A stretch of 64,000 nucleotides of DNA. Source: an uncultured Chloroflexia bacterium (lineage in GTDB: Bacteria > Chloroflexota > Limnocylindria > Limnocylindrales > CSP1-4). Numbering within the stretch: position 1 is the first letter of the stretch; every line of letters starts with the position of its first letter. Location: assembly GCA_963814115.1 (NCBI GenBank), contig CAWFBS010000014.1:20556-84555 (forward strand), written 5' to 3'. Position numbers and translations under genes: made by a program. Under the pieces are notes generated by a model. It did not search any database. It was given only the letters and a program-made list of their open reading frames with translations, and was not told the origin of the DNA. This document shows, one piece after another, positions 9,423 to 61,107 of this stretch.

Positions 9423-10529
9423 TCAGGATCCGGCTTCGCCGTCGTCGGCCAGCGAGGCAAGCCGCTCCGCCTGGTCGGTCGTGCTGAGCGCCTCCAGCAG
9501 CCGGTCCAGGTTGCCATCCAGGACGCCGGGCAGGTTCGACAGGTCCATCCCGATCCGGTGATCGGTCACCCGGTCCTGGGGATAGTTGTACGTCCGGATC
9601 TTGTCCGACCGGTCCCCTGCCCCGATCAGCGAGCGGCGCGTGGCGGAATCGGCCTCCCGCTGCCGGTTGCGCTCCTGGTCCAGGAGCCGAGCACGCAGGA
9701 TCGCCATCGCCTTGATCTTGTTCTTCAGCTGGCTGCGCTCGTCCTGGATCTCGACGACCAGGCCGCTCGGCAGGTGGGTGATCCGCACGGCCGAGTCGGT
9801 CGTGTTGACGCCCTGGCCGCCGGGGCCAGAGGAGCGCTTGACCTCGATCCGCAGGTCGCGCTCCTCGTCGATCGAAAGGTCGGCCTCCTCCGCCTCGGGC
9901 AGGACCACCACCGTCGCGGTGGACGTGTGGATGCGGCCGGAGGACTCCGTGGCCGGGATCCGCTGGACGCGGTGGACGCCACTCTCAAACTTGAGGCGGC
10001 TGAAGGCGCCCTCGCCGAAGATCTCCACCACGGCCTCCTTGACGCCACCGATCCCCGTCTCATGGAGGCTCATGACATCCGCCCGGAGCCGGTGCCGATC
10101 CGCGTAGCGCAGGTACATCCGGAGCAGGTCGCCGGCGAAGAGGGCCGCCTCGTCGCCACCTGCGCCGGCGCGGATCTCCAGGATGACGTTCCGGTCGTCG
10201 TTGGGGTCGCGGGGCAGCAGGTTGACCGTCAGTGCGTCGAGCTCGGCGGCCTCGGCAGCCTCCAGCCGGTCGACCTCCTCGCGGGCCATCGCCCGCAGCT
10301 CGTCGTCGTGCTCCGCATCGCGCATCTCGCGGGCGCCGGCCAGCTCGGCGCGCAGGGCCTCCAGGCGTTGGTATGACGAGACCACCGGCTCGAGGCGTGC
10401 GAGCTCGCGGCCAAGACGACGGAGCGCCTCCATGTCGGCGGCCACCTCCGGCGTCGAGAGCTCCGCCTGGACATGCTCGTACTGCGTGACCAGGTCGCGC
10501 AGCTTCCGGTCCAGGACGCCCTCGGCCAC
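9423..10529 (-). CDS. prfA: peptide chain release factor 1
   Basis: 368 aa with a GGQ motif ([23 protein letters not shown]) and RF1-type N-terminus. rpmE-prfA-prmC synteny. Confidence 0.9.
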
Positions 10530-10532
10530 CGC

Positions 10533-15946: not shown

Positions 15947-17110
15947 TCACCACTCCGCGCGCTGCTGGCGCATGGCAATGCTCTGCAGGATGCCGAGCCC
16001 GATCGCGATGCTGACGAGCGACGCGCCGCCGTGCGTGATGAAGGGGAGGGGGATCCCGGTGATGGGCATGACGCCGAGCACCATGCCGACGTTGACCACG
16101 ATCTGGAACAGGATCATCGAGGCGACCCCGGCGCCCATCATCAGCCCGAACGGATCGCGCGACCGCCACGCGATGGTCAGGATGCGCCAGAGCAACGCGG
16201 CAAACAGCAGGAAGACGACCACGCACCCGACAAAGCCCAGTTCCTCCGCCAGGACTGCGAAGACGAAGTCGGTCGACTGGACGGGAAGCACGTTGGACTG
16301 GCTCTGGACGCCGTTCGTGAGACCCGCCCCCAGGAACCCGCCTGAGGAGACGGCCTTCTGGGCGGTGAGGAGCTGGAAGCCCGCCCCCAACGGGTCCTTC
16401 GCCGGGTCCAGGAAGCTGGTCAGGCGTTCCTTCTGGTAGTCGTGGAGCACATACGTCCATACGAGGGGAAGGGCAGCGAAGGTCGCGACCGCGAGTGCTC
16501 CCAACCAGCGCAGGCTCGCACCCGCCATGAAGAGCATGCCCACGAGGATCGCGAGGAAGACCAGCGACGTCCCGAGGTCCGGCTGCAGGAGGACGAGCAC
16601 CCACGGAGGGATCACGATGAGACACGCACCCACGATCGAGGTCAGGGAATCCAGGCGCTGTTCGCGGTCGGCCAGGTAGCGCGCGAGGACCACGATCATG
16701 AGGATCTTGGCGATCTCGCTGAACTGGAACTGGAGCCCGAAGATCGAGACCCAGCGGGCCAATTCGGCGTCGGAGCTGCCGAAGGCGAGCGACAGCCCGA
16801 GCAGGGCCAGGTTGACGAGGTAGATCGGCCACGAGAACGCCTTCAGCCACGTGTAGTCGAAGGCCGTTGCTGCCGCGAAGGCGACCAGCGCAACCACTGC
16901 CCAGATGAGCCCGCGTGCGAACGTGTTCCCCCCGCTGAGCTGGTCGGTCCCCAGCTGAGCCGCGGTATTGCTGTAGGCCATGGTCAGGCCGAGCGTGGCA
17001 AGCAGGATCGCGTACACGAACAGCTGCAGGTCGAAGTCGCGCCAGGCGACGCCTCCGACGCGGGCTGCAATCCCGGTTGGGGCGTCGCGCTCCACCCGAA
17101 GGACGCCCAT
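15947..17110 (-). CDS. rodA: SEDS-family peptidoglycan glycosyltransferase RodA/FtsW
   Basis: 387-aa 10-TM FtsW/RodA family protein. Called rodA from its position directly downstream of the mrdA (PBP2) and mreD genes. Confidence 0.8.
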   Translation of the reverse strand: MGVLRVERDAPTGIAARVGGVAWRDFDLQLFVYAILLATLGLTMAYSNTAAQLGTDQLSGGNTFARGLIWAVVALVAFAAATAFDYTWLKAFSWPIYLVNLALLGLSLAFGSSDAELARWVSIFGLQFQFSEIAKILMIVVLARYLADREQRLDSLTSIVGACLIVIPPWVLVLLQPDLGTSLVFLAILVGMLFMAGASLRWLGALAVATFAALPLVWTYVLHDYQKERLTSFLDPAKDPLGAGFQLLTAQKAVSSGGFLGAGLTNGVQSQSNVLPVQSTDFVFAVLAEELGFVGCVVVFLLFAALLWRILTIAWRSRDPFGLMMGAGVASMILFQIVVNVGMVLGVMPITGIPLPFITHGGASLVSIAIGLGILQSIAMRQQRAEW

Positions 17111-19041
17111 CAGCGGCCACCCTGGTAGAAGTTGGTGCGCTGGAGCAGCTGCGGAAGGCGGTAATCCTTCGTGATCCCGTAGTGGAGCTGGAGGTAATAC
17201 TTGGCGACCTCCGTCGCCGTGTTGCCGAGCGTGCCTGCGTCGTAGATGAAGACACAGAAGGCCAGCTGCGAGTCCGGCTTCGAGACGTCGCCGGTCGGGT
17301 TGTCCTTGGTCCAGGCGGCCTTCGGGATGAAGCCGGCGAACCAGTTGTGATACGGCAGCACGCCGTTCTTGTCGCGCAGGCCGAACTCGGCGGTGCCGGT
17401 CTTCCCAGCGACCACGATGGGCATGTCCACGAGGTTGTACGTGTTGCGGCTGGAGACGACGCGGCGGGCCGCCTCGCGCATGGTGGTGAAGACCCAGCTC
17501 GGCGCGGCGATCTTTCGGATCACCTTCGGCGTGAACGGGCGCACGACCGTGCCGTCGGGGCTGACAATCTCGCGAACCACCTGGGGCTGGTAGAGCGTGC
17601 CGCCGTTTGCGAGCGCCGCGTATGCGTTGAGCACCTGGAGCGGCGTGGCGAGGTCATAGCCCTGGCCGATCCCGGCCTGGAGGACCTCGCCCGGATAGAT
17701 CGGCTCGCCGAGCGTGTTCAGCTTCCACTGGTTCGTGGGAACCAGGCCGGCCAATTCGGCGGGAAGGTCGATCCCGGTGGGTTGCCCGAACCCGTACTGC
17801 GTGCCCCAGTACCCGAGTCGATCGATCCCGAGCCGCTGGGCCAGCTGGTAGAAGACGGTGTCGGCGGAGTGGGCGAAGCCGTCCTTGATGTCGAGTGGCC
17901 CCCACCCGAGGTGATTCCACTCCCAGAACAGGGTGGCTCCGACCTGGACGTACGGCTTGCTGAGCACCAGCTCGTTCAGGCCGAGCTTCTTGTCCGCGAG
18001 CACGCCCGTCCCCGTGACCAGCTTGTACGTGGACCCGGGGGGCTGGATGTCGCTGATCGCGTGGTTCATCAGCGGGAGGTTCGGGTTGGCGAGGAGCTTC
18101 TGGAAATCCGCGTTGCTGATCCCACGCGCGAAGAGATTGTCGTCATAGGTGGGCTCGCTGACCATGGCCAGGATCTCGCCCGTCTGCGGGTTCTCGACGA
18201 CGATGGCGCCCCGCTTCGAGCCGGACAGCTTGAGGCCCCAGTCGAGCGCCTGCTGCGCGTAGCGTTGTTCCTTGGCGTCGATCGTCAGGATGAGCGAGTC
18301 GCCGGACACGGGCGGCGTCGTCGTCGACAGGACGCGCACCGTGCGTCCGGTTCCATCCTTCTCGACCTGCTGGACACCGTACGTGCCGCGCAGCGCCGAC
18401 TCGTACTGGGATTCCAGCCCGGTCTTCCCGATCCAGTCGTCCGGGAGGTACCCCTGGCCCTGGAGCGATGTGTACGCTGTCGCGTCGATCGGCCCGGTGT
18501 AGCCCAGCAGCTGCGTGAACAGCGGTCCGTCGAGGTAGTCGCGTCGGGCCTCCACCGTCACGTCGACCCCGGGCAGTGTCAGGTTGTCCTCGGCGATCAG
18601 GCGCGCGGTCTGCTCCGGAACGTCGTTCGCGATGGTCACGGGATCGAACCGCGAGCCGCTCGCGCTGTCGAGCGCCGTCGTGATCGCCGTCGCCGTTGTC
18701 CCGAGCAGCCCGGCCAGGCTCCCGACGACCCGCGGTTGCTGGCTCAGCGGAAGGTCGGCGGGGAGGATCGAGACCGTGAAGGTCGGCACATTCTCGACGA
18801 GCAGGTGCTTCGACCGGTCGTAGATCAGACCCCTTGTCGATGGCACGGGTTGCGTCACGACCTGGATGCCTGCCGGAACGGGCGCCGCGGCCGCAGCCGG
18901 GGCAGCCGCCGGGCTGCCCGTCATCTGCATCGCGAACAGGCGAGCTGTCAGGCCGCCCAGCATGACCACGGCTGCGAACGCGAAGACGGCAAAGCGGAGC
19001 GGCCGTCGCTCGTGGGTCGCCGGAGTCTGAAGGGTCGTCAC
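17110..19041 (-). CDS. mrdA: penicillin-binding protein 2 (class B PBP, elongasome transpeptidase)
   Basis: 643 aa: N-terminal TM anchor, PBP dimerisation domain, transpeptidase motifs (STYK-like GSTYKLVT, SAD, KTGTA). Lies between mreD and rodA. Confidence 0.85.
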   Translation of the reverse strand: MTTLQTPATHERRPLRFAVFAFAAVVMLGGLTARLFAMQMTGSPAAAPAAAAAPVPAGIQVVTQPVPSTRGLIYDRSKHLLVENVPTFTVSILPADLPLSQQPRVVGSLAGLLGTTATAITTALDSASGSRFDPVTIANDVPEQTARLIAEDNLTLPGVDVTVEARRDYLDGPLFTQLLGYTGPIDATAYTSLQGQGYLPDDWIGKTGLESQYESALRGTYGVQQVEKDGTGRTVRVLSTTTPPVSGDSLILTIDAKEQRYAQQALDWGLKLSGSKRGAIVVENPQTGEILAMVSEPTYDDNLFARGISNADFQKLLANPNLPLMNHAISDIQPPGSTYKLVTGTGVLADKKLGLNELVLSKPYVQVGATLFWEWNHLGWGPLDIKDGFAHSADTVFYQLAQRLGIDRLGYWGTQYGFGQPTGIDLPAELAGLVPTNQWKLNTLGEPIYPGEVLQAGIGQGYDLATPLQVLNAYAALANGGTLYQPQVVREIVSPDGTVVRPFTPKVIRKIAAPSWVFTTMREAARRVVSSRNTYNLVDMPIVVAGKTGTAEFGLRDKNGVLPYHNWFAGFIPKAAWTKDNPTGDVSKPDSQLAFCVFIYDAGTLGNTATEVAKYYLQLHYGITKDYRLPQLLQRTNFYQGGR

Positions 19042-47408: not shown

Positions 47409-48614
47409 TCAGCGCTTTCTCCCTCGACGGCCCTGACGGCCTCGTTCTCGCGGCCGCACGGTGGCCGCCGCGGAAGCAGAGCGGGCGGCAGGGGTGCGGT
47501 CGGTGGGCGGCCGGGCGGTTGCCGGCTTGGGTGTGGTGCCCGGCGTCCCCCCGCTCCCGGCCCTGGGTTCCTCCACGGGGAACCGCGGCCGGTGATCACG
47601 GGCGAAGCCCGGCGAGTAACCGAACAATGGGAACATGGAGCCCCAGCCGACGATGAGGTACTGCTGGGCGATCCCGAAGACCGTGGTGACGATCCAGTAG
47701 ATGAACAGGCCCGCGGGCAGGAACCCGCCGTAGGCGAGCGAGATCAAGGGAAGGAACAGGACGAGCTGGCGCTGGACCTTCGAGTTCTGATCGCTGAAGG
47801 CGGAAGTGGACGGGGGCATCGTCATCCGGCTCTGGACCAGCTGGAGGACCGCGGATGCCGCGGCCAGGACACTGAACCAGCTCAGGAGCGGGATCTTCGG
47901 GAAGAGAACCGAGACTTTCGAGACGTCCAGGTTGCCGAGCCACGCGACGTTCGTGTTGATGCAGGGCGCGTACGCGTCATAGGCGGCCGTGCCCAGATGG
48001 TTGACGCAGGAATAGTCAACCAGGTGCAGCCCGAAGAAGTTGAACATCGCGCTGGGGTTGGGGTTGGTGAGGCCCTGGCTGATGACCGTGTAGATGATCA
48101 TGAGCAGGGGGAGCTGGAGGAGCATGGGGAGGCAGCCGGAGGCCGGGTTGACGCCGCGCTCCTTGTACAGCTCCATCTGGGCCTGGCTGAACTTCGTTCG
48201 GTCGCCCTTGTAGCGCTTCTGAAGCTCCCTGATCTCCGGTTGGATCAGCTGCATTCGCTTCGTCGAGACGATCTGGCGCCGGAACAGCGGGATCAGCGCG
48301 GTCCGCACGATCAGCGTCATCAGGATGATTGCGATCCCGATGTCACCGGTGAGCTTCTGCAGCCAGATCAGCAAGATGTAGAGCAGCTGGAAGATCGGGT
48401 TGAAGACAAAGGCCAGGAGCGAGACGGGGTCCGCCCCCGGCTGGGCCGGGGTGAGTGGCGGATGCGGGGCCGCCGTCACCACGCCGCCGCTGCCGGCGGG
48501 GACGATCCCGGTCGTGCTGCAGGCGGAGACCACGAGCGCCAGTGCGACGAGCAGGAGCAGTGGAAGCAGCAGCTCGCGGCGCGGGCGGGGGAACGACACC
48601 TGGAGCTGCCTCAT
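47409..48614 (-). CDS. yidC: membrane protein insertase YidC (Gram-positive short type, lipoprotein signal)
   Basis: Lipobox LVVSACS and the YidC core (…IAIILMTLIVRTALIPL…QPEIRELQKRYKGD…GCLPMLLQLP…). Confidence 0.9.
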   Translation of the reverse strand: MRQLQVSFPRPRRELLLPLLLLVALALVVSACSTTGIVPAGSGGVVTAAPHPPLTPAQPGADPVSLLAFVFNPIFQLLYILLIWLQKLTGDIGIAIILMTLIVRTALIPLFRRQIVSTKRMQLIQPEIRELQKRYKGDRTKFSQAQMELYKERGVNPASGCLPMLLQLPLLMIIYTVISQGLTNPNPSAMFNFFGLHLVDYSCVNHLGTAAYDAYAPCINTNVAWLGNLDVSKVSVLFPKIPLLSWFSVLAAASAVLQLVQSRMTMPPSTSAFSDQNSKVQRQLVLFLPLISLAYGGFLPAGLFIYWIVTTVFGIAQQYLIVGWGSMFPLFGYSPGFARDHRPRFPVEEPRAGSGGTPGTTPKPATARPPTDRTPAARSASAAATVRPRERGRQGRRGRKR

Positions 48615-48821: not shown

Positions 48822-49153
48822 GAGGACGTCGATCCTCCCAGGACCCCTCCGCGCCGGAGGAGCCGTTCCAGTATGTCGACGAGCGCCCGGTGGTCCGCCG
48901 CCACGAGCGCCGGTCGGGCGATGATGAGCACGTCCCAGCCCGGCTGGAGCGAGGGCGCCATCGCCCTGAGCGCCTCCCGGATCCGTCGCCGTGTGCGGTT
49001 CCTGACCACGGCGCCCCCGAGGGTCCGGCCGGTCGCGAAGCCGAAGCGGACTTCGTCGCGATCGGTTCGGCGGAAGCGGATCGTCATCAGTGGGTGAGAC
49101 CTGGTGGTCCTGGACGCCTGGAGCGCCGTGAAGTCCGCCGGGCGGGTGAGCAT
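48818..49153 (-). CDS. rnpA: ribonuclease P protein component
   Basis: [12 protein letters not shown]… and an RNR-rich RNA-binding region. It lies between rpmH and yidD. Its start is uncertain and may extend upstream. The remainder of track ORF 48818..49534 is artefact. Confidence 0.8.
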
Positions 49154-49188
49154 GGCGAGCCTGCGCTGGTCGCGGCCCGATGTCGGCG

Positions 49189-49323
49189 TCAGGCCGTCAG
49201 CTGCTTCCTGCCTCGTGCGCGGCGAGCGGCGAGCACCCGACGGCCCCCGGGGGTCTTCATCCGGGCGCGGAAGCCGTGCTCCTTTGCGCGATGGCGCTTC
49301 TTCGGCTGGTAGGTCTGCTTCAT
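49189..49323 (-). CDS. rpmH: 50S ribosomal protein L34
   Basis: Reverse translation gives [44 protein letters not shown] (44 aa). It is absent from the ORF track because it is under 60 aa. Confidence 0.9.
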
Positions 49324-49707
49324 CGGGTGTCGTGGTCCTCAACCGTCCGGCCCCAGGGGTTTCGGTCGTTTCGTCCCCAGAAGGCACGTAAACGCGCCGC
49401 ACGCACGGAGGCGCGGGGCGCGTCAACGCCGGGCGATTATAGGAAGGTGCCATTCGGGGTGTCAAACGACGACGCGGCCGGGGCGCACCGAAGCCGACCC
49501 GGCCCCGCTCTGGCGCGACCCGGCCAGCGACCACTCATATACTCCCTGGGGGTATGTGCTTTTGGGTGCCGGATTGCCTTGCGGGGCCGGTCCGGGCGGT
49601 GCTACGATGCGTCGGCCCACGGTCGCCGGGACGCCTGCGGGCAACCCCGGTGGAACCCCGGGGCCAGCCCAAGGAGCGCTCGCCCAGCCTGCTGGGGGCG
49701 TCTCCAT

Positions 49708-49744
49708 TTGTCGATTGTGCTTGTCCGTGCGCGGTTTGTCCTGC
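49708..49744 (+). promoter_or_regulatory. cluster of three degenerate DnaA-box-like 9-mers upstream of dnaA (TTGTCGATT, TTGTCCGTG, TTGTCCTGC)
   Basis: Compared to the actinobacterial consensus TTGTCCACA they carry 3, 2 and 3 mismatches respectively. A TATACT -10-like hexamer lies at 49535-49540. Confidence 0.35.
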
Positions 49745-49805
49745 CCGGAACCAGCCGCTGAGTATCTCCTCCGGGCCGAGCGCCCGGGCCAAGCAGGTCC
49801 GTCCG

Positions 49806-51167
49806 TTGGATACACGACACATCTGGCGCGCGGCCCTCGGAGAGCTCCAGGTCGCCCTCTCGCCGGCCAACTTCGAGACGTGGCTTCGGCATACGTCGCT
49901 GGTCGAGGTGGATGACACCCGGTTCCGGATCGCCGTTCCGAACGGGTTCGCAAAGGACTGGCTGGAGACCCGCTATCGCTCCCTGATCTCGCAGACGCTC
50001 GCCCGGATCGTGGGCTACAGCGTCGCGGTGGAGTTCATGGTGCGGCCAGACGCCGGCCTCGCCGAGCCGGGCACGGAAGGGGTCGCTGCGCCGCCGCCGG
50101 ACGTCCGGGTGGAGCCGACCAGGGTCGGCGGCGATGGCTCGTCGGCCAACGTCAACCCCCGCTACACCTTCTCGAACTTCATCGTCGGGTCGGCAAACCG
50201 GCTGGCCCACGCGGCCGCGCTCTCGGTAGCGGAGCGGCCGGGCCACGCCTACAACCCGCTCTTCCTGTACGGCGGCGTAGGCCTGGGCAAGACCCACCTG
50301 ATGCACGCGATCGGCAACGCGGTCGTGGCCCGCTTCCCGCGCAAACGCGTGGTCTACGCGACCAGCGAGAAGTTCACCAACGAGTTCATCACGAGCATCC
50401 AGCAGGGCCGAATCGACGACTTCCGGTCGCGCTACCGGCGAATCGACCTGCTCCTGATCGACGACATCCAGTTCATCGCCGACAAGGAGCGGACCCAGGA
50501 GGAGTTCTTCCACACGTTCAACGCCATCCACGAAGACGGCAAGCAGATCGTCCTCTCGTCGGATCGCCCGCCGAAGCAGATCGTCACGCTCGAGGAGCGG
50601 CTTCGGAGCCGGTTCGAGTGGGGCCTGATCGCGGACCTCACGGCGCCCGACCTGGAGACACGGATCGCCATCCTCCGGGCCAAGGCGGAGGATTCGGCCG
50701 TCCCGATCGGCTCGGATGTCATCGAGTTCATCGCGCGCAAAGTCGTCAGCAACATACGCGAGCTCGAGGGCGCGCTCAACCGGGTGGTGGCATACGCGAG
50801 CATGGGCGCCATGCCGATCACGATCGAGCTCGCCCAGGCGGTCCTCTCCAACGTCCTGTACAACCCCAAGAAGCGCCAGGTCACCACCGAGAAGATCGCC
50901 CGGGCGGTCGCCGACTATTACGGCGTCGGCCTCGAGGCCCTCCGCGGCCAGAAGCGCGACAAGGCGATCGTCACGCCCCGCCAGATCGCGATGTTCCTGA
51001 TGCGCGAGGAAACGGACGTCTCCCTGCTGCGCATCGGCGCAGAGCTGGGGGGTCGGGACCACTCGACCGTTCTCCACGCCTACGACAAGATCAACCGCGA
51101 GGCGGCCCTCAACGACGAGATGCGCAGGGATATCGCCGCTGTCCGCGAGATGATCTACGCGGACTGA
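49806..51167 (+). CDS. dnaA: chromosomal replication initiator protein DnaA
   Basis: Domain I (…IWRAALGELQVALSPANFETWL…), AAA+ Walker A GGVGLGKTHL, and the domain IV HTH (…RQIAMFLMREETDVSLLRIGAELGGRDHSTVLHA…). Start is uncertain (TTG 49806). The upstream portion of the track ORF from 49554 is likely non-coding. Confidence 0.9.
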   Translation: MDTRHIWRAALGELQVALSPANFETWLRHTSLVEVDDTRFRIAVPNGFAKDWLETRYRSLISQTLARIVGYSVAVEFMVRPDAGLAEPGTEGVAAPPPDVRVEPTRVGGDGSSANVNPRYTFSNFIVGSANRLAHAAALSVAERPGHAYNPLFLYGGVGLGKTHLMHAIGNAVVARFPRKRVVYATSEKFTNEFITSIQQGRIDDFRSRYRRIDLLLIDDIQFIADKERTQEEFFHTFNAIHEDGKQIVLSSDRPPKQIVTLEERLRSRFEWGLIADLTAPDLETRIAILRAKAEDSAVPIGSDVIEFIARKVVSNIRELEGALNRVVAYASMGAMPITIELAQAVLSNVLYNPKKRQVTTEKIARAVADYYGVGLEALRGQKRDKAIVTPRQIAMFLMREETDVSLLRIGAELGGRDHSTVLHAYDKINREAALNDEMRRDIAAVREMIYAD

Positions 51168-52764: not shown

Positions 52765-53904
52765 GTGCTCACGTCCATCTCGATCCGGGACTTCCGCGGC
52801 TACGGGTCGCTGGAGGCCTCCTTCGGGGCGGGGGCCCACCTCGTCTGGGGCCCGAACGCCGCCGGGAAGACGAGCCTCCTGGAGGCCCTCGTGGTGTGCG
52901 CCCGCGGCTCCTCGCACCGCACCGTGACGGACCTTGAGCTCGTTCGCTGGGATGCCCCGTTCGCCCGCCTCGAGACCCGCCGCGTGCAGCCGGGTGCCGA
53001 CCCGCTCGGGCTCGAGGTCACGCTGGTGCGCGACGGCCCCGCGGGCGGGCGGAAGCGGATTCGGGTCAACGGGATCCCCCGTCGCACGACCAGTCTTGCC
53101 GGCCTCATGCGGGTGGTCATCTTCGCGCCGGAGGAGATGCTGCTCGTGGCCGGCCCGCCCGGGCTGCGACGTGCCGCGCTCGACGCGCTCGCCGGGCAGC
53201 GGATTCCCACCTACGCGGCCGATCTTGCGGCGTACGGACGCGTGCTGGCGCAGCGAAACGCGCTCCTGCGGGCCATCCGCGAGGAGCGCGCGACACCCGA
53301 TCAACTGCCCTCGTGGGATGCCCGCCTCGTGGAATCCGGCGCGGCGATCCTGGACGGGAGGCGGCGAATCCTCGAGGCGCTCGTCGCGCCACTCGCGGGA
53401 GCCCACGCGGAGATCGCACCGGAAGAGGGGTCCCTCGGCGTGACGTACGAAAGCAACGTGGTCCCGGTCGGGGCCGAAACATCCGCCGCCGCACTTGCCC
53501 GCCGGCTTGCCGAGACGGCCGCGAAGGAGGCCTGGAACGGGACGACGCTGGTTGGCCCGCACAGGGACGACCTTGCCTTCCGGCTGGACGGGCGCGACAT
53601 GGCCACGTTCGCATCGCGCGGACAGCAGCGCACCGCGATCCTCGCCTTCAAGCTCGCCGAGCTGGACCTCCTGACCGCCCAGGACGGGCGCCCGCCGCTT
53701 CTCCTGCTCGACGACGTCTTCAGCGAGCTGGACCCGGTGCGCCGGAGCCACCTGGTCCACCGCATCGCCGGCCTGCCGCAGGCGTTCGTCACGACCACGA
53801 CGCTCGACGACCTGGATCCCGCCCTGCGGGCCATCGGCGCGGCCTGGGAGGTGGTCCCGGACCCGGCGCTCGGTGCCCGGCTCGTCGGGCCCTCGGTGGG
53901 CTGA
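52765..53904 (+). CDS. recF: DNA replication/repair protein RecF
   Basis: Walker A GPNAAGKTSLLEAL, signature region, and Walker B LLLLDDVFSELD. dnaA-dnaN-recF order. Confidence 0.9.
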   Translation: MLTSISIRDFRGYGSLEASFGAGAHLVWGPNAAGKTSLLEALVVCARGSSHRTVTDLELVRWDAPFARLETRRVQPGADPLGLEVTLVRDGPAGGRKRIRVNGIPRRTTSLAGLMRVVIFAPEEMLLVAGPPGLRRAALDALAGQRIPTYAADLAAYGRVLAQRNALLRAIREERATPDQLPSWDARLVESGAAILDGRRRILEALVAPLAGAHAEIAPEEGSLGVTYESNVVPVGAETSAAALARRLAETAAKEAWNGTTLVGPHRDDLAFRLDGRDMATFASRGQQRTAILAFKLAELDLLTAQDGRPPLLLLDDVFSELDPVRRSHLVHRIAGLPQAFVTTTTLDDLDPALRAIGAAWEVVPDPALGARLVGPSVG

Positions 53905-53913
53905 GGGGCGCTC

Positions 53914-54273
53914 GTGTCGCCGGCCCGCCCCTACGACGACGAGCGTGTGCCTCGCCGTCGCTCACCTCGCCGCATCGGCGACCTCCTGCCCGAGGCGGCA
54001 CGGGCCCTGGGCCTGGAGGAGCAGCTCCGCTGGGCGCGGGCCGGCGCAGCCTGGGAGCGGCTGCTGCTCTCCCGCGCTCCTGCCGCGGTTGGTGGGTCGC
54101 GGCCCGTGCGCCTGGAGGGGGACGGAACGCTGGTCGTCGAGGCGAGCGCCCCGATCGTCGGCCAGGAGCTCCTGATGCGGGCCGAGGAGCTGCTCGCGGC
54201 GTTCGGTGATCTGCCCGACGGGATCCGGGCCGAATCGCTGCGGGTGGTGGTGGGCAGGGGTATCATCCGGTGA
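53914..54273 (+). CDS. DUF721 (DciA-like) protein
   Basis: 119-aa protein after recF (…LEEQLRWARAGAAWERLL…VRLEGDGTLVVEASAPIVGQELLMRAEELL…), the conserved recF-DUF721 arrangement of Actinobacteria. Confidence 0.7.
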   Translation: MSPARPYDDERVPRRRSPRRIGDLLPEAARALGLEEQLRWARAGAAWERLLLSRAPAAVGGSRPVRLEGDGTLVVEASAPIVGQELLMRAEELLAAFGDLPDGIRAESLRVVVGRGIIR

Positions 54274-54361
54274 CCTCGGCGGGCGGCCACCGCCCGCAGC
54301 GCGGTCGCCCGCCACCGGCGTCACGCCGGCCCGCACCCGAGCGTCAGGTCCGTCGAATCGC

Positions 54362-56653
54362 ATGGCCGTCCGACTCCAGATGAAGCTCGGCCTCGTGCCC
54401 GAGCATGAGCGACTCGAGGACTCCCCGGACACCGTTGCCATCGTCGAGCCGACGATCGGGGCGACGGCCCGCTCCAAGGGGAGCCTATTCCTCGTTGTGA
54501 CGGGCGGGGGCAAAGCCCGGCGCCTTCGCGATGCCACCCACCTCGTGGCGGACACGATCCAGGGCGAGTACTACTACGACGAGTCGGCCGGCCTCGTCGT
54601 GTGCCTGGAGAAGGCGATCCGCGCCGCGAACCGACGCCTCCTCGCCCAGCGGGACCGGCTCGGACTGGGCGACGGGCCGACCGGCCCGATCGGCGTCGGC
54701 ATCGCCGTGGTCCGTGGCAACGAGCTCTACGTCGTGACGACCGGCCCCGTCGAGGCGTACCTGGTTCGACAGGCACACCTGATGACGCTCCCGGACGCCG
54801 GCCGCGGCCGCGGCCTGCCGATGGAGGACCCCGCGCCGGTCGTGTGGCGCGGCGAGATCGCGGTTCGCGACTCACTCGTGCTCGTGTCGTCCAGCCTGAC
54901 CGCGAAGCTGGGCCCAGACGAGCTCAAGGATGCCGTGGTGACGCTCCACCCCCAGGCGGCCATGGAGCACCTCCACCACCGGTTCGTGGCAGCCGGCGGC
55001 GCGGGCAGCGATGCCGCCCTCGCCCTGGAGGCCGCTGAGGTGTCGGCGACAGCCCAGCGGGGCCGCCTGATTCCGGTGCGGCCGCCCGAGCCGCTCGCGG
55101 GCCAGCCCGACCACTCCCCGATCCCCCTGGTCGACTCGGTCGGTGACGGCATGGCGGCGGTCTCGTCCGGCGCAAGCCGCGCCCGAAGCGCCGCCGGGAA
55201 CGCGCTGACCGGGCTGGCCGGACGGCTCCAGGACCTGCTCCCGCGGCGCGGGACTCGCTATCGGCGGGTCACGCCCGCCGCGACCCGCCGCGAATCTCAG
55301 AAACGGGCGGCGGTCGCGGTCCTCGCGTTCGTGGGGGTCGCTGCCGTGCTCGGGGTCGGGCTGTGGGTCATCGGCGGCGCCGGCGGCACTGCGGAGATCC
55401 CGAAGATCAACGCCGGCGAGAACGCGCTCGCCGCTGCCCGGGAGGATGTCCGGCTCGTCTTCGACAACGGCACGGACCTGATCGCTGCAGACCCACAACG
55501 CGCCGAAGGGCTGCTGAAGGACGCGCTTACCAACGTGGCGGCCGCGTCGACCGCCGGAATCCCGGCCTCGGTCGCCGGCCCCCTGCGTTCGCAGGTGACG
55601 GCGGGGCTGGATCGCCTGTACGGGGTCGTGGAAGTGGCGCCCCAGACAGCCTTCTCGTTTGCCTCGCAGAGACCAGCCTTCGACCTCGGCGGGCTCGTCC
55701 GGGGTCCGGACGGGGCGCCCTACGTCCTGGATCGCACCACCAAGGCCGTCTACCGGATCAACCTGTCATCCCGGAAGGCCGTCGCGATCATGAAGGCCGG
55801 CCAGGCGGTGGCGAGCGCCGGCATCAAGGTGGGCGTCCCGCGCTTCCTCGCCGTGGGCGGCCCGGACCTCCTGATGCTCGACGACAAGAACATCCTCTGG
55901 CGCTGGCGGCCCACGGATACCACCGGGAAGGGCGTCCTGCGGAGGCTGCCGGTCCAGGAATCCGCCTCGTGGGGCACCGACATCCTCGGGATCGGCACCT
56001 TCGTCGCCAACTTCGACGCCGCGCTCTACAACCTGTACGTCCTGGAGCCGTCGCAGCAGCAGATCCTGCGCTACACCATGCTCGCGGATGGCTCCAGCTT
56101 CCCGGCAGCGGCAACCGGCTACCTGGCGACGCCGCTGGACATCAGCAAGGTGACGTCCATGTACATCGACGGCGAGGTCTATCTGGCCGACGCCGGCGTG
56201 GTCGAGCGCTTCGTGGGCGGCAGCTCCGGCGGCTGGTCGCTCGCCTCGCCGGGCGACGACGTGCTCCGCCCGACCCGCGACTACACGCTGATCGACTCGC
56301 CGGACCCACGCCGCCAGGGGACGCTGTACGTCTTCGACGCGGCGAACGCGCGGGTGCTGGCATTCGACAAGCTGACCGGCGCGTACCTGGCGCAGTACCG
56401 CCCCGCCGGCGGGAGCCAGGCGTGGTCCCAGCTTCGGGACTTCTACATTCAGCCGCGCTCGCCCGGCCAGGCCCCGGCGATCTATTGGATCGACGGAACC
56501 ACGCTCGGCACCGCGATCCTCCAGCCCGTGCCCGCAGCCGCTCCGAGCGGCTCTCCCGCCCAAAGCCCCGGGGCGGGCGCCTCGGCGACCCCGGCGCCAT
56601 CGCGGACGCCCGGCGCGACACACAAGCCGTCCCCGACGCCCCGCAAGACCTAG
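54362..56653 (+). CDS. membrane protein: cytoplasmic PP2C/PPM-fold-like domain (apparently catalytically degenerate), single TM, extracellular beta-propeller-like repeats
   Basis: ATG 54362 (the track start 54206 overlaps DUF721 and is rejected). N-terminal ~300 aa align in pattern to PPM phosphatases (LVVTGGGKA ~ DGMGG; GIAVVRGNELYVVTTG; SLVLVSSSLTAKL ~ SDGL) but the metal-binding Asp are replaced. TM helix AAVAVLAFVGVAAVLGVGLWVIGG. About 450-aa ectodomain with YVLD/LYVL/LYVFD/IYWIDG blade-like repeats and an Ala/Pro/Ser-rich tail. Confidence 0.45.
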   Translation: MAVRLQMKLGLVPEHERLEDSPDTVAIVEPTIGATARSKGSLFLVVTGGGKARRLRDATHLVADTIQGEYYYDESAGLVVCLEKAIRAANRRLLAQRDRLGLGDGPTGPIGVGIAVVRGNELYVVTTGPVEAYLVRQAHLMTLPDAGRGRGLPMEDPAPVVWRGEIAVRDSLVLVSSSLTAKLGPDELKDAVVTLHPQAAMEHLHHRFVAAGGAGSDAALALEAAEVSATAQRGRLIPVRPPEPLAGQPDHSPIPLVDSVGDGMAAVSSGASRARSAAGNALTGLAGRLQDLLPRRGTRYRRVTPAATRRESQKRAAVAVLAFVGVAAVLGVGLWVIGGAGGTAEIPKINAGENALAAAREDVRLVFDNGTDLIAADPQRAEGLLKDALTNVAAASTAGIPASVAGPLRSQVTAGLDRLYGVVEVAPQTAFSFASQRPAFDLGGLVRGPDGAPYVLDRTTKAVYRINLSSRKAVAIMKAGQAVASAGIKVGVPRFLAVGGPDLLMLDDKNILWRWRPTDTTGKGVLRRLPVQESASWGTDILGIGTFVANFDAALYNLYVLEPSQQQILRYTMLADGSSFPAAATGYLATPLDISKVTSMYIDGEVYLADAGVVERFVGGSSGGWSLASPGDDVLRPTRDYTLIDSPDPRRQGTLYVFDAANARVLAFDKLTGAYLAQYRPAGGSQAWSQLRDFYIQPRSPGQAPAIYWIDGTTLGTAILQPVPAAAPSGSPAQSPGAGASATPAPSRTPGATHKPSPTPRKT

Positions 56654-56727
56654 ACCCCTTCGCCGCTGTTCAGGGACGGCCCGAACGCTCCACGGGACGC
56701 GGCGCCCGGAGGTGGGATAATCCTGCC

Positions 56728-57270
56728 ATGGTCGGGCGGCTGATCGAGATGTCCGTCGAGAGCGTGCGGGTCCACATGCTCTCGACCCAGCACGTCGTGA
56801 TCCTCCGCGAGATGGAGCGTGACCGGTACCTCCCCATCTGGATCGGCCCGTGGGAGGCGAGCGCGATCGCCATGAAGCTCCAGGACCAGGTCCCCGAGCG
56901 ACCGCTGACCCACGACCTGCTCTCGACCGTCCTCGACGTGCTCGGGGCGACCGTTCGCGAAGTGATCATCGCGGACCTTGCCGACGACACGTTTCACGCC
57001 CGGATCATGCTGGAGGCGGCGGGACGGCCGATCGAGGTCGACTCCCGCCCATCAGACGCGCTGGCCCTTGCCGTTCGGACCGGTGCCCGGATCTTCGCCG
57101 CGGAGGCCGTCCTGGACCGGGCGGGCGTGGAGCCCGACAAGGGCCCCACCGGCGAGCAGGGCGGGGAGCCGATTGACGAGTCCAAGCTGTCGGTGTTCCG
57201 CGACTTCGTGAACTCGCTCGACGTGGAGCCCGGCGCCGACGAGCGACGCGAGCGACCGCCCCGCGAGTGA
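56728..57270 (+). CDS. bifunctional nuclease (BFN/DUF151) family protein
   Basis: MVGRLIEMSVESVRVHMLSTQHVVILREMERDRYLPIWIGPWEASAIAMKL… is the typical BFN domain. The overlapping 635-aa track ORF from 55363 is artefact. Confidence 0.7.
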   Translation: MVGRLIEMSVESVRVHMLSTQHVVILREMERDRYLPIWIGPWEASAIAMKLQDQVPERPLTHDLLSTVLDVLGATVREVIIADLADDTFHARIMLEAAGRPIEVDSRPSDALALAVRTGARIFAAEAVLDRAGVEPDKGPTGEQGGEPIDESKLSVFRDFVNSLDVEPGADERRERPPRE

Positions 57271-57302
57271 GTGCCGGCCCGCCGCGCCGCGGCCGGCCCG
57301 CC

Positions 57303-58121
57303 TCAGCCGACGATCGTCGACCCTCTCGCCAGCGCTCGCCGCCTGCCCGCCCACATCAGGAGGCGCAGGCTCCAGAAGTCCACGACCGAGCGCCAGATCA
57401 CCGACAGCCTTGCCCCGGTCTGCGAGCCCGCCGTCCGCGGGTAGTGGTCGACGCCGACCTCCACCACGTTCCGGCCGGCGGCGCGGACCTTGATGAGAAG
57501 CTCCGCGGAGAAGAACGCCCCGCCGGATGCGACGTGGACCCCGGCCAGTGCCCCGCGCCGGAACAGCTTGCAGGCACAGTCCACGTCCCGGATCCGGAGC
57601 CCGAAGAAAACCCGGTTCGCCAGCCAGTAGAGGCGCGCGTAGAGCGTCCGGAGCGCCGGGTCCGCCCGCCGGATCCGGAACCCCACCACGGCGTCCGGGG
57701 CATCCGGTCCTGCCAGACGGGCGGTGAGCCGGCCCAGATCCGCCACCCGGAACTGCCGATCGCCATCGGTGAATGCCACGAGGCCGAACCGCGCAGCACG
57801 GAAGCCGGAGCGCAGGGCAGCGCCGTAGCCGAGATTCGTCGCGTGGTGCACCGCACGGACGAGACCCGGATTCGCGGCGGCCAGCCGGTCCGCGATCTGG
57901 CCGGTGCGATCGGTTGAGCCGTCGTCGACGGCGATGATCTCGAACCGGTCGGCGAGGGCGGGCAGCGCAGCCAGCGCCTCCTCCACGAGGCCCTCCAGGT
58001 TGGCCTCCTCGTTGTGGGCCGGGAAGAAGTACGAGAGCTCGGCGACGCGGGCCGCCGTGGCGGGGGCGGGCGTCGGTGCCGTCGCGGGAGCAGCGGGCGG
58101 GTCGGCTTCGGCCAGCGTCAT
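57303..58121 (-). CDS. GT2 polyprenol-phosphate sugar synthase (Dpm1/Ppm1/GtrB-like)
   Basis: GT-A motifs: …LSYFFPAHNEEANL…, the DXD motif IIAVDDGSTDRT, and …VAFTDGDRQF… ATG start at 58119-58121 overlaps the upstream gene's stop. Confidence 0.75.
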   Translation of the reverse strand: MTLAEADPPAAPATAPTPAPATAARVAELSYFFPAHNEEANLEGLVEEALAALPALADRFEIIAVDDGSTDRTGQIADRLAAANPGLVRAVHHATNLGYGAALRSGFRAARFGLVAFTDGDRQFRVADLGRLTARLAGPDAPDAVVGFRIRRADPALRTLYARLYWLANRVFFGLRIRDVDCACKLFRRGALAGVHVASGGAFFSAELLIKVRAAGRNVVEVGVDHYPRTAGSQTGARLSVIWRSVVDFWSLRLLMWAGRRRALARGSTIVG

Positions 58122-59704
58122 GGCCCTATCGTAGCCCGCGCGACGCCGGCTGCCCGCGGCCCCACCACGCGGAGGAGCGACTGCGTTCCGCTCGGATCGG
58201 CCACCTGGTCGAGCAACCACGCCCCCTCGAGCCCCGGCACGTCCTCGTCGCGCCGCACGAGGTAGACCGGCCGCCGGCCCAGGTTCTCGCGGATCACGTC
58301 GTCAACGCTGCCGAGGTTCGCGTCCAGGCGGGTCCGGTCGTCGATCACGCTGACGTCGGGACGCTCGCCCAGGATCAGCTGGCGATACCACAGGGGCGTG
58401 GAATAGTCCCACCAGGTCACGAGGACGGCGTTCGGCGCAACAACCTGCAGCACCCAGCGGCTCCAGCCGGTGGCGCTCGTGTCGGTCGACTGATCCACCA
58501 CCAGCCGCGTCGTGGGGGCCGCAAGGACCGCCGGCGCGACGAGGGCGCCGCAGACGACCGCCGCGGCGAGAAGGCGCCGCGCCTCTCCGGCCCGCCGCCC
58601 GGCGTTCGGCTGGACGAGCAGCCACGCCTCCAGGGCCTCGACCAGTCCATCCGCGGCGATCGCGAGCCAGCTCACGACGATGAGGATCGGCCCCAGGTAG
58701 TAGCGCTCGATGTCTGCATTCGTGTACGAGACCGCGAACCAGCCCGTCATCACGAGCCACGTGGTTGTCAGGAGGGCGTACCGCGGCCGGCGGATCGCGG
58801 TGACCAGGAGGCTCGCGGGGATCAGCGCCACCAGCGGCCCGAACTGCGACGTCGCCAGGGCGACCAGCGCGGCGGCCTTGCCCGCCAGGTCGGTCAGGAC
58901 CCCGCCGAGCGCGCCGCCGAACTGCAGCCCCAGGACCACGTACCAGAAGCCGCCCCACGTGTCCGGATGGCCGTACACGAGTGGAGCCCCCATCGCTGCC
59001 CGGACCGGCAGCTCCAGGTAGAGGAGCGCGGCGATCCCGAAGATGGCCAGGGCGCAGCGCCCTACGAGGGCCGGACGCCGCCAGGTGCCGGGCTCGACGG
59101 CGAGGATGAAGAGGGCGATCCCGGGTGCGAGCAGGATGGTGAGCGCCTGGTTGCCCAGCGCGACCCCATAGAGCGCCGCGGCGCCGACAAGCCAGCGATC
59201 CGCGCCCGCGCTGCCGGTCCGGGCCCGTTCCTCCCAGCCGACCAGCACCAGCAGCAGCCCGGCGACGAAGGCGAGATGGAGCATGTGCGGGTCGGCGAAC
59301 GAGCCGACTCGCCATGGGATCTGGGTCAGCGTCAGCAGGAGGCCGGCGGCGGCGCCCACCAGCGTTCGACCGGTCAGGCGGCGGACAAGCAGCACGGTCA
59401 ACCCGACCGCCACGCCGAACGTGATCGCGTTGAGCAGGTTCATGCGGAACGCGGGCTCGCCGAGCGGTGCCAGCACGGAGCTCGCGAGCCAGCCCAGCAG
59501 CACGTAGCTTGGGTACCCGGTCGGATGGGCCGTGCCGAGCACGGGCGCGACAACTTGGAACTCACCGGTGTCCCAGAGCCCCTGGCCCGGCAGCAGCGTG
59601 GATCGCGCCAGCGCGAACGCCACGATGCCCACGAGCGCGGGCGCGGCACCCTGCGCGAGCGCGCCCCAGCGCCCCTCGAGCCCCGGCGGGCGGCCGCCCC
59701 TCAC
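58118..59704 (-). CDS. DUF2723 (TMEM260-like) GT-C family membrane glycosyltransferase
   Basis: GTG start at 59704 overlaps the upstream GT39 stop (GTGA). …LWDTGEFQVVAPVLGTAHPTGYPSYVLLGWLASSVLAPLGEPAFRMNLLNAITF… matches DUF2723. About 11 TM helices followed by a C-terminal soluble domain. The track start at 60082 is rejected. Confidence 0.7.
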   Translation of the reverse strand: MRGGRPPGLEGRWGALAQGAAPALVGIVAFALARSTLLPGQGLWDTGEFQVVAPVLGTAHPTGYPSYVLLGWLASSVLAPLGEPAFRMNLLNAITFGVAVGLTVLLVRRLTGRTLVGAAAGLLLTLTQIPWRVGSFADPHMLHLAFVAGLLLVLVGWEERARTGSAGADRWLVGAAALYGVALGNQALTILLAPGIALFILAVEPGTWRRPALVGRCALAIFGIAALLYLELPVRAAMGAPLVYGHPDTWGGFWYVVLGLQFGGALGGVLTDLAGKAAALVALATSQFGPLVALIPASLLVTAIRRPRYALLTTTWLVMTGWFAVSYTNADIERYYLGPILIVVSWLAIAADGLVEALEAWLLVQPNAGRRAGEARRLLAAAVVCGALVAPAVLAAPTTRLVVDQSTDTSATGWSRWVLQVVAPNAVLVTWWDYSTPLWYRQLILGERPDVSVIDDRTRLDANLGSVDDVIRENLGRRPVYLVRRDEDVPGLEGAWLLDQVADPSGTQSLLRVVGPRAAGVARATIGP

Positions 59705-61107
59705 CAGCCGAGCACTCGCGCCCACACGAGCCCCCAGGTCTCCACCGCGATCGAGACCGCGATCAGCCCTCCGACCAGCAGGCCGCCGCGCGCCGCGCGC
59801 AGCCCATGGCGGGCCACGAGCCGCTCCGCGCCGAGGGCGAGCGGGACGAGCAGGAACGGCGCGAAGTCCAGGCTGAAGCGGTAGCCGAACTGGACCCAGC
59901 CCTGCGAGAAGTGCATCAGGTTGACGATCGCGATGACGAGCGCGGCAAGGAATCCGCCGATCACGCGCCGGTCCCGCAGGAGCGGCAGCGCGGCGGCGGC
60001 GAGGAGCCACGCCGGGCTCGTGAGAAGCAGGCTCATCCCCACGGGATTGGGGACCAGCCATGAGCACCCGGCCGAGCTCCACAGCTCACGCGGCACGCCC
60101 GCGTCGCAGGCGGGCATGATGTCCGGCAGGCCACCCAGCATGATCCCCAGGTTCTGGGGGATGTAGCGGATGTCCTGGAGCGACCACGCCGCATGGTAGT
60201 TGAGCTCCGGGTAGGCCCACACCTCGTACTGGTAGAGCGACTCGTAGACGGGGTTGAAGAGCGTTCCGCTGACCACGAGGTTGTAGACGAGGAGGGCGCC
60301 CACCGGGATGGCCACGCCCAGCGCGGCGCTCATCGTGCGCCGGGTCCACGAGCCGCCCCCGCCGACGAAGAGCAGGAAGACGGCCCCGAAGACCACGGTC
60401 AGCCGGCTCGTCACGGCGAGGCCGAGGAGGATCCCGGCGGCGACCTGGCGCCGGTCGAGGAGCGTGCCCGGCTCTCCCGGATCGAGCGCGGCCGATCGGT
60501 CGTCGGCATCGAGCGCGATCGCGACGGCGGCGAGCGTGAGCCCCACCGCGACCACGTGCGCGAGGAACCAGGTGGTCCCGAGCGACGACGCGTACCAGAG
60601 CGCGGTTCCGCCCCCCAGGAAGATGGTCAGGGCGGCCCGCAGCCCCGCCCGGACCGGGAGCCGACCGAGGAGCCAGAAGGCGATCCCCACATCGAGGGCG
60701 CCGAGCACGACCGCGAGCAGTGTCTCGTCCGTCGCCATCCCCCAGATCGCGACGAAGGGAAGGAGGATCACCGCGGGCAGGGGCGGGAACGGGATCATGC
60801 CCCGGCCCGTCTCGTTCCCGGCGGCGTCCAGCACGGGAACCACGTCGTTGAAGAAATCGTTCCCGGGCGAGGTGGCCGTGGCCGGAACCGGGTACTGGAT
60901 GGAGACCTGGCCGTGGAGGTAGGCGTCCGCCTGCCAGACGAAGTGGTTGTAGACCGTCGGCCAGTACGGGCGGGTGAGGAAATACAGCACGAGGAAGGCG
61001 ACCACCAGGCCGACCCCCAGGCCGAGGGCGGAGCGGGACGGAACGGGGGCTTCTGTGCCGCGCGGAGGGGCAGGGGCCGTCGAAGCCTCGGCTATACTCC
61101 GGTTCAC
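59701..61107 (-). CDS. GT-C membrane glycosyltransferase, GT39/ArnT (PMT_2)-like
   Basis: 468 aa, at least 10 TM helices. Profile typical of polyprenol-phosphate-sugar-dependent GT-C enzymes (…FLTRPYWPTVYNHFVWQADAYL…GMIPFPPLPAVILLPF…). Confidence 0.6.
   Translation of the reverse strand: MNRSIAEASTAPAPPRGTEAPVPSRSALGLGVGLVVAFLVLYFLTRPYWPTVYNHFVWQADAYLHGQVSIQYPVPATATSPGNDFFNDVVPVLDAAGNETGRGMIPFPPLPAVILLPFVAIWGMATDETLLAVVLGALDVGIAFWLLGRLPVRAGLRAALTIFLGGGTALWYASSLGTTWFLAHVVAVGLTLAAVAIALDADDRSAALDPGEPGTLLDRRQVAAGILLGLAVTSRLTVVFGAVFLLFVGGGGSWTRRTMSAALGVAIPVGALLVYNLVVSGTLFNPVYESLYQYEVWAYPELNYHAAWSLQDIRYIPQNLGIMLGGLPDIMPACDAGVPRELWSSAGCSWLVPNPVGMSLLLTSPAWLLAAAALPLLRDRRVIGGFLAALVIAIVNLMHFSQGWVQFGYRFSLDFAPFLLVPLALGAERLVARHGLRAARGGLLVGGLIAVSIAVETWGLVWARVLGW

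Follow-up and report, generated by a model that had tools for sequence, protein, structure and literature searches.

PstP of Mycobacterium tuberculosis (Rv0018c) is laid out as an N-terminal cytoplasmic PP2C domain, one transmembrane helix and an extracellular C-terminal region. PknD-type receptor Ser/Thr kinases have a cytoplasmic signalling domain, one transmembrane helix and an extracellular six-bladed propeller, and the kinase propeller 1RWL is the PknD sensor domain. Pseudoenzymes are well documented as eukaryotic signalling scaffolds but few are described in bacteria, where RssB is the main PP2C-type case. In pseudophosphatases the PP2C fold is used for protein binding and not for catalysis (PMC6546054, PMC12002173); the C-terminal domain of Escherichia coli RssB is one, so called for its lost catalytic aspartates (PMC6546054), and bacterial PP2C pseudophosphatases as such are already known. 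We describe here a gene, referred to as X, from a window of 64,000 nucleotides (the whole stretch of DNA analysed, positions 20,556 to 84,555 of contig CAWFBS010000014.1, assembly GCA_963814115.1). By analogy its product is most like a hybrid of PstP (the membrane PP2C layout), a PknD-type receptor (the propeller) and pseudophosphatases of the RssB/TAB1 type. An apparently dead PP2C domain and a PknD-like extracellular propeller, encoded at a fixed origin-proximal dnaA-dciA position, form the combination that characterizes its family, and searches of Pfam, NCBIfam, the PDB and the literature turned up no described family with this domain combination.

54362..56653, plus strand: whole gene X, encoding a 763-residue type II (N-in/C-out) membrane protein; stop codon TAG at 56651-56653

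A cytoplasmic domain with the PP2C fold

54362..55045, plus strand: cytoplasmic domain of predicted PP2C fold, catalytically degenerate (residues 1-228; AlphaFold2 models, Foldseek and hhalign)

The first-pass annotation of the window, made from the sequence alone, had seen a PP2C-like segment pattern in the N-terminal part of X, and had named profile-profile and AlphaFold comparison with PP2C structures as checks, and a lack of PP2C-fold matches in profile searches as the refuting outcome. Both comparisons return PP2C matches, the opposite of that outcome, and they support an alpha-beta-beta-alpha sandwich of about 228 residues. The full-length AlphaFold2 model, built from an alignment of 83 sequences (A1), has a mean predicted local distance difference test score (pLDDT) of 80.9, with two folded regions mostly above 90, and a second, independent model of residues 1-260 shows the same order of secondary structure. 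When the full model is compared with the PDB by Foldseek, bacterial PP2Cs rank first (E-values 7e-11 to 1e-9; target-normalised template-modelling (TM) scores 0.63-0.78), the matches being tPphA (2j86, 2j82, 2y09), MsPP (2jfs, 2jfr), PstP (1txo, 2cm1), PppA (6jkv) and Stp1. The N-terminal model gives 152 matches at E<=1e-3, and the top 50 listed all have the PP2C fold (best E 2.8e-13, TMq 0.5-0.69); SpoIIE (5mqh, 5ucg), RsbX and the pseudophosphatase TAB1 (2irm) are among them.

Profile-profile alignment agrees. An alignment of residues 1-260 (A2) matches PstP plus tPphA by hhalign with a probability of 93.7% (E 1.9e-7), and a more diverse family alignment (effective number of sequences, Neff, 3.2) raises this to 97.9% (E 3.4e-12), pairing residues 1-225 with 1-239. 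The PstP catalytic-domain sequence used here is 100% identical to 2cm1_A across 239 residues, and the tPphA sequence came from the same PDB search. Across these comparisons PstP, tPphA, MsPP, Stp1 and PppA are the best structural matches of X (E 1e-10 to 3e-13), PstP with tPphA is the best profile match, and we regard the predicted PP2C fold as solid.

At the sequence level the remote homology to PP2C is visible only by hhalign. Pfam, NCBIfam and phmmer searches against PDB sequences gave no PP2C and no significant match for X, with no PP2C family (Pfam PF00481, PF13672 and PF07228, and NCBIfam) appearing at E<=1, and profile searches of PDB sequences with A1 (full-length) and A2 yielded chance-level matches only. 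The chance-level matches of the sequence searches were GldM, a peptide-binding protein and DUF7485. A Pfam scan of 10 divergent family members left a faint PF00481 match (E 0.08, in P0135) as the sole PP2C trace.

Decay of the old active site

54410..54430, plus strand: motif I remnant RLEDSPD (residues 17-23), with D23 corresponding to PstP D25 and R17 lying near PstP R20; low local confidence
54491..54514, plus strand: degenerate motif II LVVTGGGK (residues 44-51), with T47 in place of the bridging ligand PstP D38 (DGMGGH)
54737..54754, plus strand: TTGPVE (residues 126-131), with P129 in place of PstP D118 (GDSR motif, third-metal/catalytic region)
54788..54841, plus strand: 18-residue connector (residues 143-160) replacing the PP2C flap subdomain of about 43 residues (PstP 133-175)
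54881..54898, plus strand: degenerate motif VIII LVSSSL (residues 174-179), with S177 in place of PstP D191 (SDG)
54998..55015, plus strand: GAGSDA (residues 213-218), with D217 the probable counterpart of PstP D229 (GGxDN)

Every active PP2C holds its binuclear centre with ligands of the D38/D191 type, and the bridging aspartate is essential in PP2C enzymology, its loss abolishing activity. In the hhalign alignment T47 (LVVTGGGK) stands opposite PstP D38 (LADGMGGH), P129 (TTGPVE) opposite D118 (IGDSRG) and S177 (LVSSSL) opposite D191 (LCSDGL), so that TGGG 47-50 pairs with DGMG 38-41 and SSSL 176-179 with SDGL 190-193, and about 25 gap columns face the PstP flap at 133-175. All four of these regions are well aligned. 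The replacements of DGMGG by TGGG and of SDGL by SSSL had been proposed from the sequence of X, with conservation in its relatives suggested as a check, and the family bears them out. We counted columns in 150 cluster representatives from an exhaustive profile search, about 100 of which cover a given position. Column 47 contains T66, S15, G7, E6, A4, Q2 and H1 among the 103 representatives covering it, and column 177 contains P36, R31, A13, S5 and K4 among 98; Asp occurs in neither. Column 129 (103 representatives) is P67, D8 and R8. Column 48, the equivalent of PstP G39, is Gly in X and mostly Ser or Ala family-wide, and the glycine loop of motif II is missing throughout the family, together with the counterparts of D38, D191 and D118 and the flap.

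Having lost both central metal-binding aspartates as well as the GDSR aspartate and the flap, the X domain is almost certainly unable to build a binuclear Mn/Mg centre and would thus be a pseudophosphatase; that it is dead as a PP2C we strongly infer from these alignments. Because the defining central metal ligands were looked for and are absent, we do not count X among the active PP2C enzymes. It combines the fold with lost catalytic ligands and so fits, in structural terms, the definition of a PP2C pseudophosphatase (PMC6546054). Set against PstP, X has no counterparts of D38, D118 and D191 and neither the glycine loop nor the flap, and no Pfam PP2C model matches it. It resembles the RssB C-terminal domain, TAB1 and PHLPP2 in having a PP2C fold without catalytic aspartates, but those proteins are soluble and cytoplasmic, with receiver, PH/LRR or other domains as fusion partners, whereas X is membrane-anchored with a propeller and a signature of its own (YYYDESAG, below), and no sequence relationship to them is detectable beyond the fold.

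The old site has not been erased altogether. D23 is Asp in 90 of 96 cluster representatives, D217 is Asp in 75 of 87, and R17 is Arg in 81 of 90. The global hhalign alignment places D23 opposite PstP D25 with low local confidence; D217 directly precedes the last strand (219-226) in the model, as in PP2C, with an hhalign register uncertain by 2 residues relative to PstP D229. The initial description of the domain as dead therefore stands for the central ligands D38 and D191 and needs qualifying for D23, D217 (probably D229) and R17, which are kept, and the old site may retain some residual binding function.

Conservation on the switch loop and in the juxtamembrane linker

54569..54592, plus strand: family signature YYYDESAG (residues 70-77), in the loop between alpha1 (55-69) and alpha2 (78-95), the PP2C "switch" element
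55082..55135, plus strand: conserved linear motif PPEPLAGQPDHSPIPLVD (residues 241-258), in a juxtamembrane linker predicted to be disordered

Conservation in X peaks in the loop that joins alpha1 and alpha2 of the switch, at a distance from the old active site. YYYDESAG is invariant in alignments A1 and A2, and in the broader set each of its positions is conserved in about 89-96% of the covering representatives, with the exception of E74 (86 of 106, 81%). Helices alpha1 and alpha2 form a conserved regulatory switch and dimerisation element in SpoIIE, RsbU and other PP2Cs (PMC8080068), so that the best-conserved motif of X sits at their regulatory element; SpoIIE and RsbU, however, keep their metal ligands and are active, whereas the absence of these ligands leaves the X switch unable to recruit metal. 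Other invariant residues are R37, K39 and G40 in an insertion of 11 residues that separates strands 2 and 3, R118 and E121 in the 118-121 hairpin, and E223 and E226 in the last strand. PP2C topology would put them, together with YYYDESAG, at one and the same "base" end of the fold.

The linker at residues 229-284 has pLDDT below 50, yet carries the almost invariant PEPLAGxPDRSPIPLAD, in which P244, A246, P249, S252, P253, I254, P255 and D258 do not vary; this is likely to be a short linear motif that binds a partner. Conservation in the family has thus shifted from the old catalytic face to the switch loop, the loops assigned to the base, and the juxtamembrane motif. Mean identity to X by region is 72% in the PP2C-like domain, 69% in the linker, 51% in the helical stalk, 57% in the propeller and 31% in the tail, the linker being more conserved than the folded propeller although it is predicted to be disordered. 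In a subfamily with 37% identity in the N-terminal domain, BLASTP aligns that domain only and the ectodomain is no longer alignable. Because the cytoplasmic part is so much better conserved than the ectodomain (72% against 51-57%), which cannot be aligned in the divergent subfamily, the sequences show the pattern expected when a conserved output module in the cytoplasm is coupled to a sensor that evolves faster.

Membrane topology and ectodomain

55307..55378, plus strand: single transmembrane helix (residues 316-339), the only hydrophobic window above 1.6
55394..55618, plus strand: extracytoplasmic helical stalk (residues 345-419), with helices at 345-367, 378-397 and 402-419; AlphaFold2 pLDDT about 90 or higher
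55619..56527, plus strand: six-bladed beta-propeller resembling NHL and PknD sensor domains (residues 420-722), from AlphaFold2 strands with pLDDT 87-97 and Foldseek
56528..56650, plus strand: Pro/Ser/Thr-rich disordered C-terminal tail (residues 723-763); pLDDT 33-41

A single transmembrane helix had been predicted, and residues 316-339 are indeed the only Kyte-Doolittle window above 1.6 in X, within a long helix (309-337) in the model. Nine Lys or Arg residues fall in the 25 residues before this segment and three after it, a bias which argues for a cytoplasmic PP2C-like domain with the C-terminal part outside. X therefore has the PstP-like layout of an N-in PP2C domain, one transmembrane helix and an extracellular C-terminal region, as judged from the model and hydropathy, and differs from PstP in having a folded stalk and a propeller outside.

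The first-pass annotation also suggested that the ectodomain is a beta-propeller. For most of its length this holds: the model contains six four-stranded blades with strands spanning residues 422-719, the first strands (422-432) probably closing the ring with blade 6, and hydrophobic-Y-V-x-D strand repeats recur near residues 453, 502, 555, 606, 654 and 706, at a spacing of 48-53 residues. The stalk of about 75 residues and the disordered tail of about 40 are not propeller. Foldseek matches of the propeller include Pizza6 (6rek, 7ov7), Drp35 (2dso), the Brat NHL domain (1q7f) and the virginiamycin B lyase Vgb (2z2p), with E-values from 7e-9 to 8e-8; the Pizza6 proteins are themselves designs based on the kinase propeller 1RWL (PMC7734218). 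The likeness to PknD-type receptors lies in this order of a cytoplasmic signalling-type domain, one transmembrane helix and an extracellular six-bladed propeller. In X, however, an apparently dead phosphatase fold takes the place of the kinase, a helical stalk leads up to the propeller, the Pfam NHL repeat (PF01436) was not detected, and 1RWL is not among the top 50 matches listed. A divergent member, P0223, has one Pfam NHL repeat just over the cutoff (21.7 bits against 20). Across 143 family members Pro, Ser and Thr make up 50% of the last 35 residues, compared with 18% of the propeller body.

A large family in the Chloroflexota

A word-indexed search recovered 1819 homologues of X, and an exhaustive profile search, cut off at E<=1e-3, gave 1644 clusters at 50% identity, 400 of them with E<=1e-10. 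A pattern scan with YYYDESAG showed that at least 486 GTDB species representatives encode a relative of X. The best 80 of these are all Chloroflexota metagenome-assembled genomes (MAGs), many of them labelled Candidatus Limnocylindrales or Limnocylindria; a few representatives are labelled Anaerolineaceae, Thermomicrobiales or Verrucomicrobiia. Since the best relatives come from Chloroflexota (Ca. Limnocylindria) MAGs, the host is itself such an organism and not an actinobacterium, contrary to the context that had been implied. The Limnocylindria are an abundant class in soil and freshwater with few cultured members. Two homologue records from the JGI bear the automatic label "PrpC"; all the other source names that we looked at, 18 further ones, read "hypothetical protein".

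Three homologue records (P0062, P0074 and L030) are labelled Candidatus Nanopelagicales, Patescibacteria or Verrucomicrobiia. The first two encode proteins 61-63% identical to X, and L030, which has the Verrucomicrobiia label, is 54% identical with the same synteny; given this identity and synteny the contigs are probably mis-binned or mislabelled and do not reflect spread outside the Chloroflexota.

53914..54273, plus strand: dciA (DUF721), 88 bp upstream of X; Pfam DciA E 1.4e-7

The mechanical open reading frame (ORF) over X runs from 54206 to 56653 (815 residues, GTG start). The start had instead been placed at 54362, and three observations show that this start and the coordinates of X are correct. 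The N-terminus MAVRLQMKLG, which corresponds to the ATG at 54362, is common to the family (in a MAFFT alignment of 117 full-length homologues and likewise in A1), the identical 763-residue product is already called as a gene in public collections, and 54206-54361, rightly left out of X, runs into dciA.

Gene order around X

56728..57270, plus strand: gene for a protein with a bifunctional nuclease (BFN) domain (PF02577), 74 bp downstream of X; Pfam E 7e-40

Synteny was examined by tblastn of the window proteins against 82 related loci, all from one class. The order dnaA-dnaN-recF-dciA-X-BFN is found wherever the contig is long enough, with a rhomboid gene between X and BFN in some loci, and the precomputed Pfam annotation of two relatives gives the same order with the addition of PMT. 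dciA adjoins X in every relative for which upstream sequence is available, and divergent subfamilies (P0221, P0175 and P0223) keep the adjacency with gaps of 13-42 bp. BFN lies downstream of X in nearly all of the loci. Of the 82 loci, 47 carry the rhomboid gene (PF01694), which encodes a protease of about 234 residues, between X and BFN, and 35 lack it there; in L043 it occupies 10279-10983 and starts 5 bp past the X stop, and it is found even in the most divergent subfamily, where the P0223 locus reads recF-dciA-X-rhomboid-BFN. No rhomboid match was obtained anywhere in the 64-kb window, whose lineage has lost the gene from the position after X.

X had earlier been placed in the position of PstP. 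That label is loose: judged by the M. tuberculosis order Rv0001-Rv0006, X holds the slot that gyrB has in actinobacteria. The PstP operon itself is not reproduced, X being in a dnaA-dciA operon and not with fhaA, fhaB, rodA, pbpA, pknA and pknB, and a search of all six frames of the window for the Hanks kinase catalytic-loop pattern HRDxKxxN found none. The 64-kb window contains no genuine PP2C; a DGVGG motif at 17854 (plus strand) is spurious, the real gene there encoding a minus-strand PBP2-type transpeptidase. An apparent X-BFN fusion, P0111 (967 residues, PF02577), is a frameshift artefact, because from about residue 585 it is an out-of-frame Arg/Pro-rich stretch that reads through into the BFN gene. 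A scan of 53800-57400 for sigma-70 promoters and intrinsic terminators found nothing, and is uninformative in GC-rich sequence from a non-model member of the Chloroflexota.

Beyond BFN, at 57303-61107 on the minus strand, is a divergent cluster resembling a protein O-mannosylation system, which nearly all related loci retain as a GT2 gene, a TMEM260-like gene and a gene for a 468-residue membrane protein; in relatives the cluster adds a very long PMT-domain (PF02366) protein.

57303-58220, minus strand: GT2 (PF00535; Pfam)
58118-60082, minus strand: ORF for a TMEM260-like O-mannosyltransferase (PF11028; Pfam)
59701-61107, minus strand: 468-residue membrane protein with no Pfam match

Proposed role and alternative explanations

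With moderate confidence we propose, from its architecture and synteny, that X is a receptor-like, single-pass, N-in/C-out pseudophosphatase with a propeller sensor in Ca. Limnocylindria. The propeller would bind an extracellular or envelope ligand, and the signal would cross through the single transmembrane helix and stalk, probably by a change in oligomeric state. The pseudo-PP2C domain would then serve as a non-catalytic docking or allosteric module making contacts through its linker motif and its switch surface, which in active PP2Cs serves dimerisation and the control of partners. The invariant position of X after dnaA-dnaN-recF-dciA and before BFN (with the rhomboid in between in many lineages) suggests that the cytoplasmic partners may be encoded in its own operon neighbourhood.

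Several points weigh against this proposal. The function is deduced from architecture. Conservation of two acidic positions (D23 and D217) and of R17 is unexpected for a wholly obsolete site, and the D23 and D217 equivalences depend in turn on low-confidence alignment ends and on the order of secondary structure. The placement of the other conserved residues at the base was deduced from PP2C topology. Lastly, the searches near X turned up neither a kinase nor an FHA or other phospho-signalling gene, which leaves a link to Ser/Thr phosphorylation without support.

The alternative that survives best, although we consider it unlikely, is that X is a membrane tether or regulator working with the origin operon, coupling the status of the envelope or of the extracellular medium to DciA/DnaB loading, to DnaA activity or to BFN, with its pseudo-PP2C domain bound to one of these proteins. 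It would account for the run dnaA-dnaN-recF-dciA-X at every locus with enough upstream sequence, for the closeness of dciA and X even at 37% identity in the N-terminal domain, and for BFN as the next gene in nearly all loci, and no terminator-like site was seen among dciA, X and BFN in the window. Weighing on the other side, bacterial origin-proximal gene order is exceptionally stable regardless of function, and shared ancestry may suffice to explain synteny within one class; the terminator scan is of the uninformative kind noted above, and neither a fusion nor any other direct link is at hand.

It is rather unlikely that X is mainly an envelope glycoprotein or biogenesis factor, with its propeller and tail as substrates or partners of the GT2, TMEM260-like and PMT proteins and its cytoplasmic domain a vestigial anchor. 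Pro/Ser/Thr-rich sequence is the kind that actinobacterial Pmt mannosylates, the tail keeps its 50% Pro, Ser and Thr across the core family, and the divergent cluster lies beside BFN, with PMT added in relatives; the tail could be a substrate of this O-mannosylation-type cluster. A vestigial anchor, however, would not be expected to be the most conserved part of the protein together with its linker, divergent subfamilies without the Pro/Ser/Thr tail still keep the synteny, and adjacency on opposite strands is weak evidence.

We think it improbable that X undergoes regulated intramembrane proteolysis, in which the downstream rhomboid would cut the Gly/Ala-rich transmembrane helix and free the pseudo-PP2C domain into the cytoplasm in the manner of anti-sigma factors or Notch. 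The transmembrane segment ends in GVGLWVIGGAGG, and the frequency of the rhomboid gene between X and BFN, its 5-bp spacing in L043 and its presence in the most divergent subfamily speak for the idea, but the window lineage and the other loci without a rhomboid do without it, and most known rhomboid substrates are N-out whereas X is N-in/C-out. These three alternatives (origin tether, envelope glycoprotein and rhomboid substrate) are compatible with the receptor-like pseudophosphatase as sub-mechanisms.

Least credible of all is that X is still an active phosphatase or other hydrolase, with a non-canonical site made of D23, D217 and R17 or of a newly conserved polar cluster (R37, K39, Y70-Y72, D73, E74, S75, K84, R118, E121, E223 and E226), since against the conservation of these residues and the two "PrpC" names, which are automatic among 18 others reading "hypothetical protein", must be set the family-wide loss of the bridging aspartate, D191, D118, the glycine loop and the flap and the inactivity of RssB, TAB1 and PHLPP2 with similar losses (PMC6546054, PMC12002173).

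A more ambitious reading joins several of these elements: X would represent a new bacterial receptor class, a dead PP2C with a new switch/base site (YYYDESAG together with R37, K39, R118, E121, E223 and E226), co-transcribed with dnaA-dnaN-recF-dciA and linking an extracellular or envelope signal, sensed by its propeller, directly to replication initiation or helicase loading, with release by the rhomboid in many lineages. We consider this unlikely and put it forward very tentatively.

Other features of the window

The dnaA ORF as listed (49554-51167, plus strand) encodes 537 residues with a Cys/Pro/Arg-rich N-terminal stretch of about 90, while two relatives have DnaA proteins of 451-457 residues; the actual start codon probably lies downstream of 49554. 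In the profiled part of the window (48-64 kb), GC skew turns from positive to negative at about 49000-50000, and near the same place minus-strand genes (yidC, 47409-48614) give way to plus-strand ones (dnaA onward), in keeping with a replication origin region. Three other genes of the window are listed here.

17110-19041, minus strand: PBP2/FtsI-type transpeptidase, 643 residues
44270-46195, minus strand: VanW and PG_binding_4 protein, 641 residues
47409-48614, minus strand: YidC (60KD_IMP)

Significance of the family

Were X to prove only a conserved envelope protein, its significance would be modest. The family is large and unnamed, goes undetected by Pfam and NCBIfam, and is a candidate for a new Pfam family in the PP2C clan. 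It offers a clean case of decay of the catalytic face with conservation of the PP2C switch surface, and it raises the hypothesis that in the Chloroflexota envelope sensing may be wired to replication or to intramembrane proteolysis.

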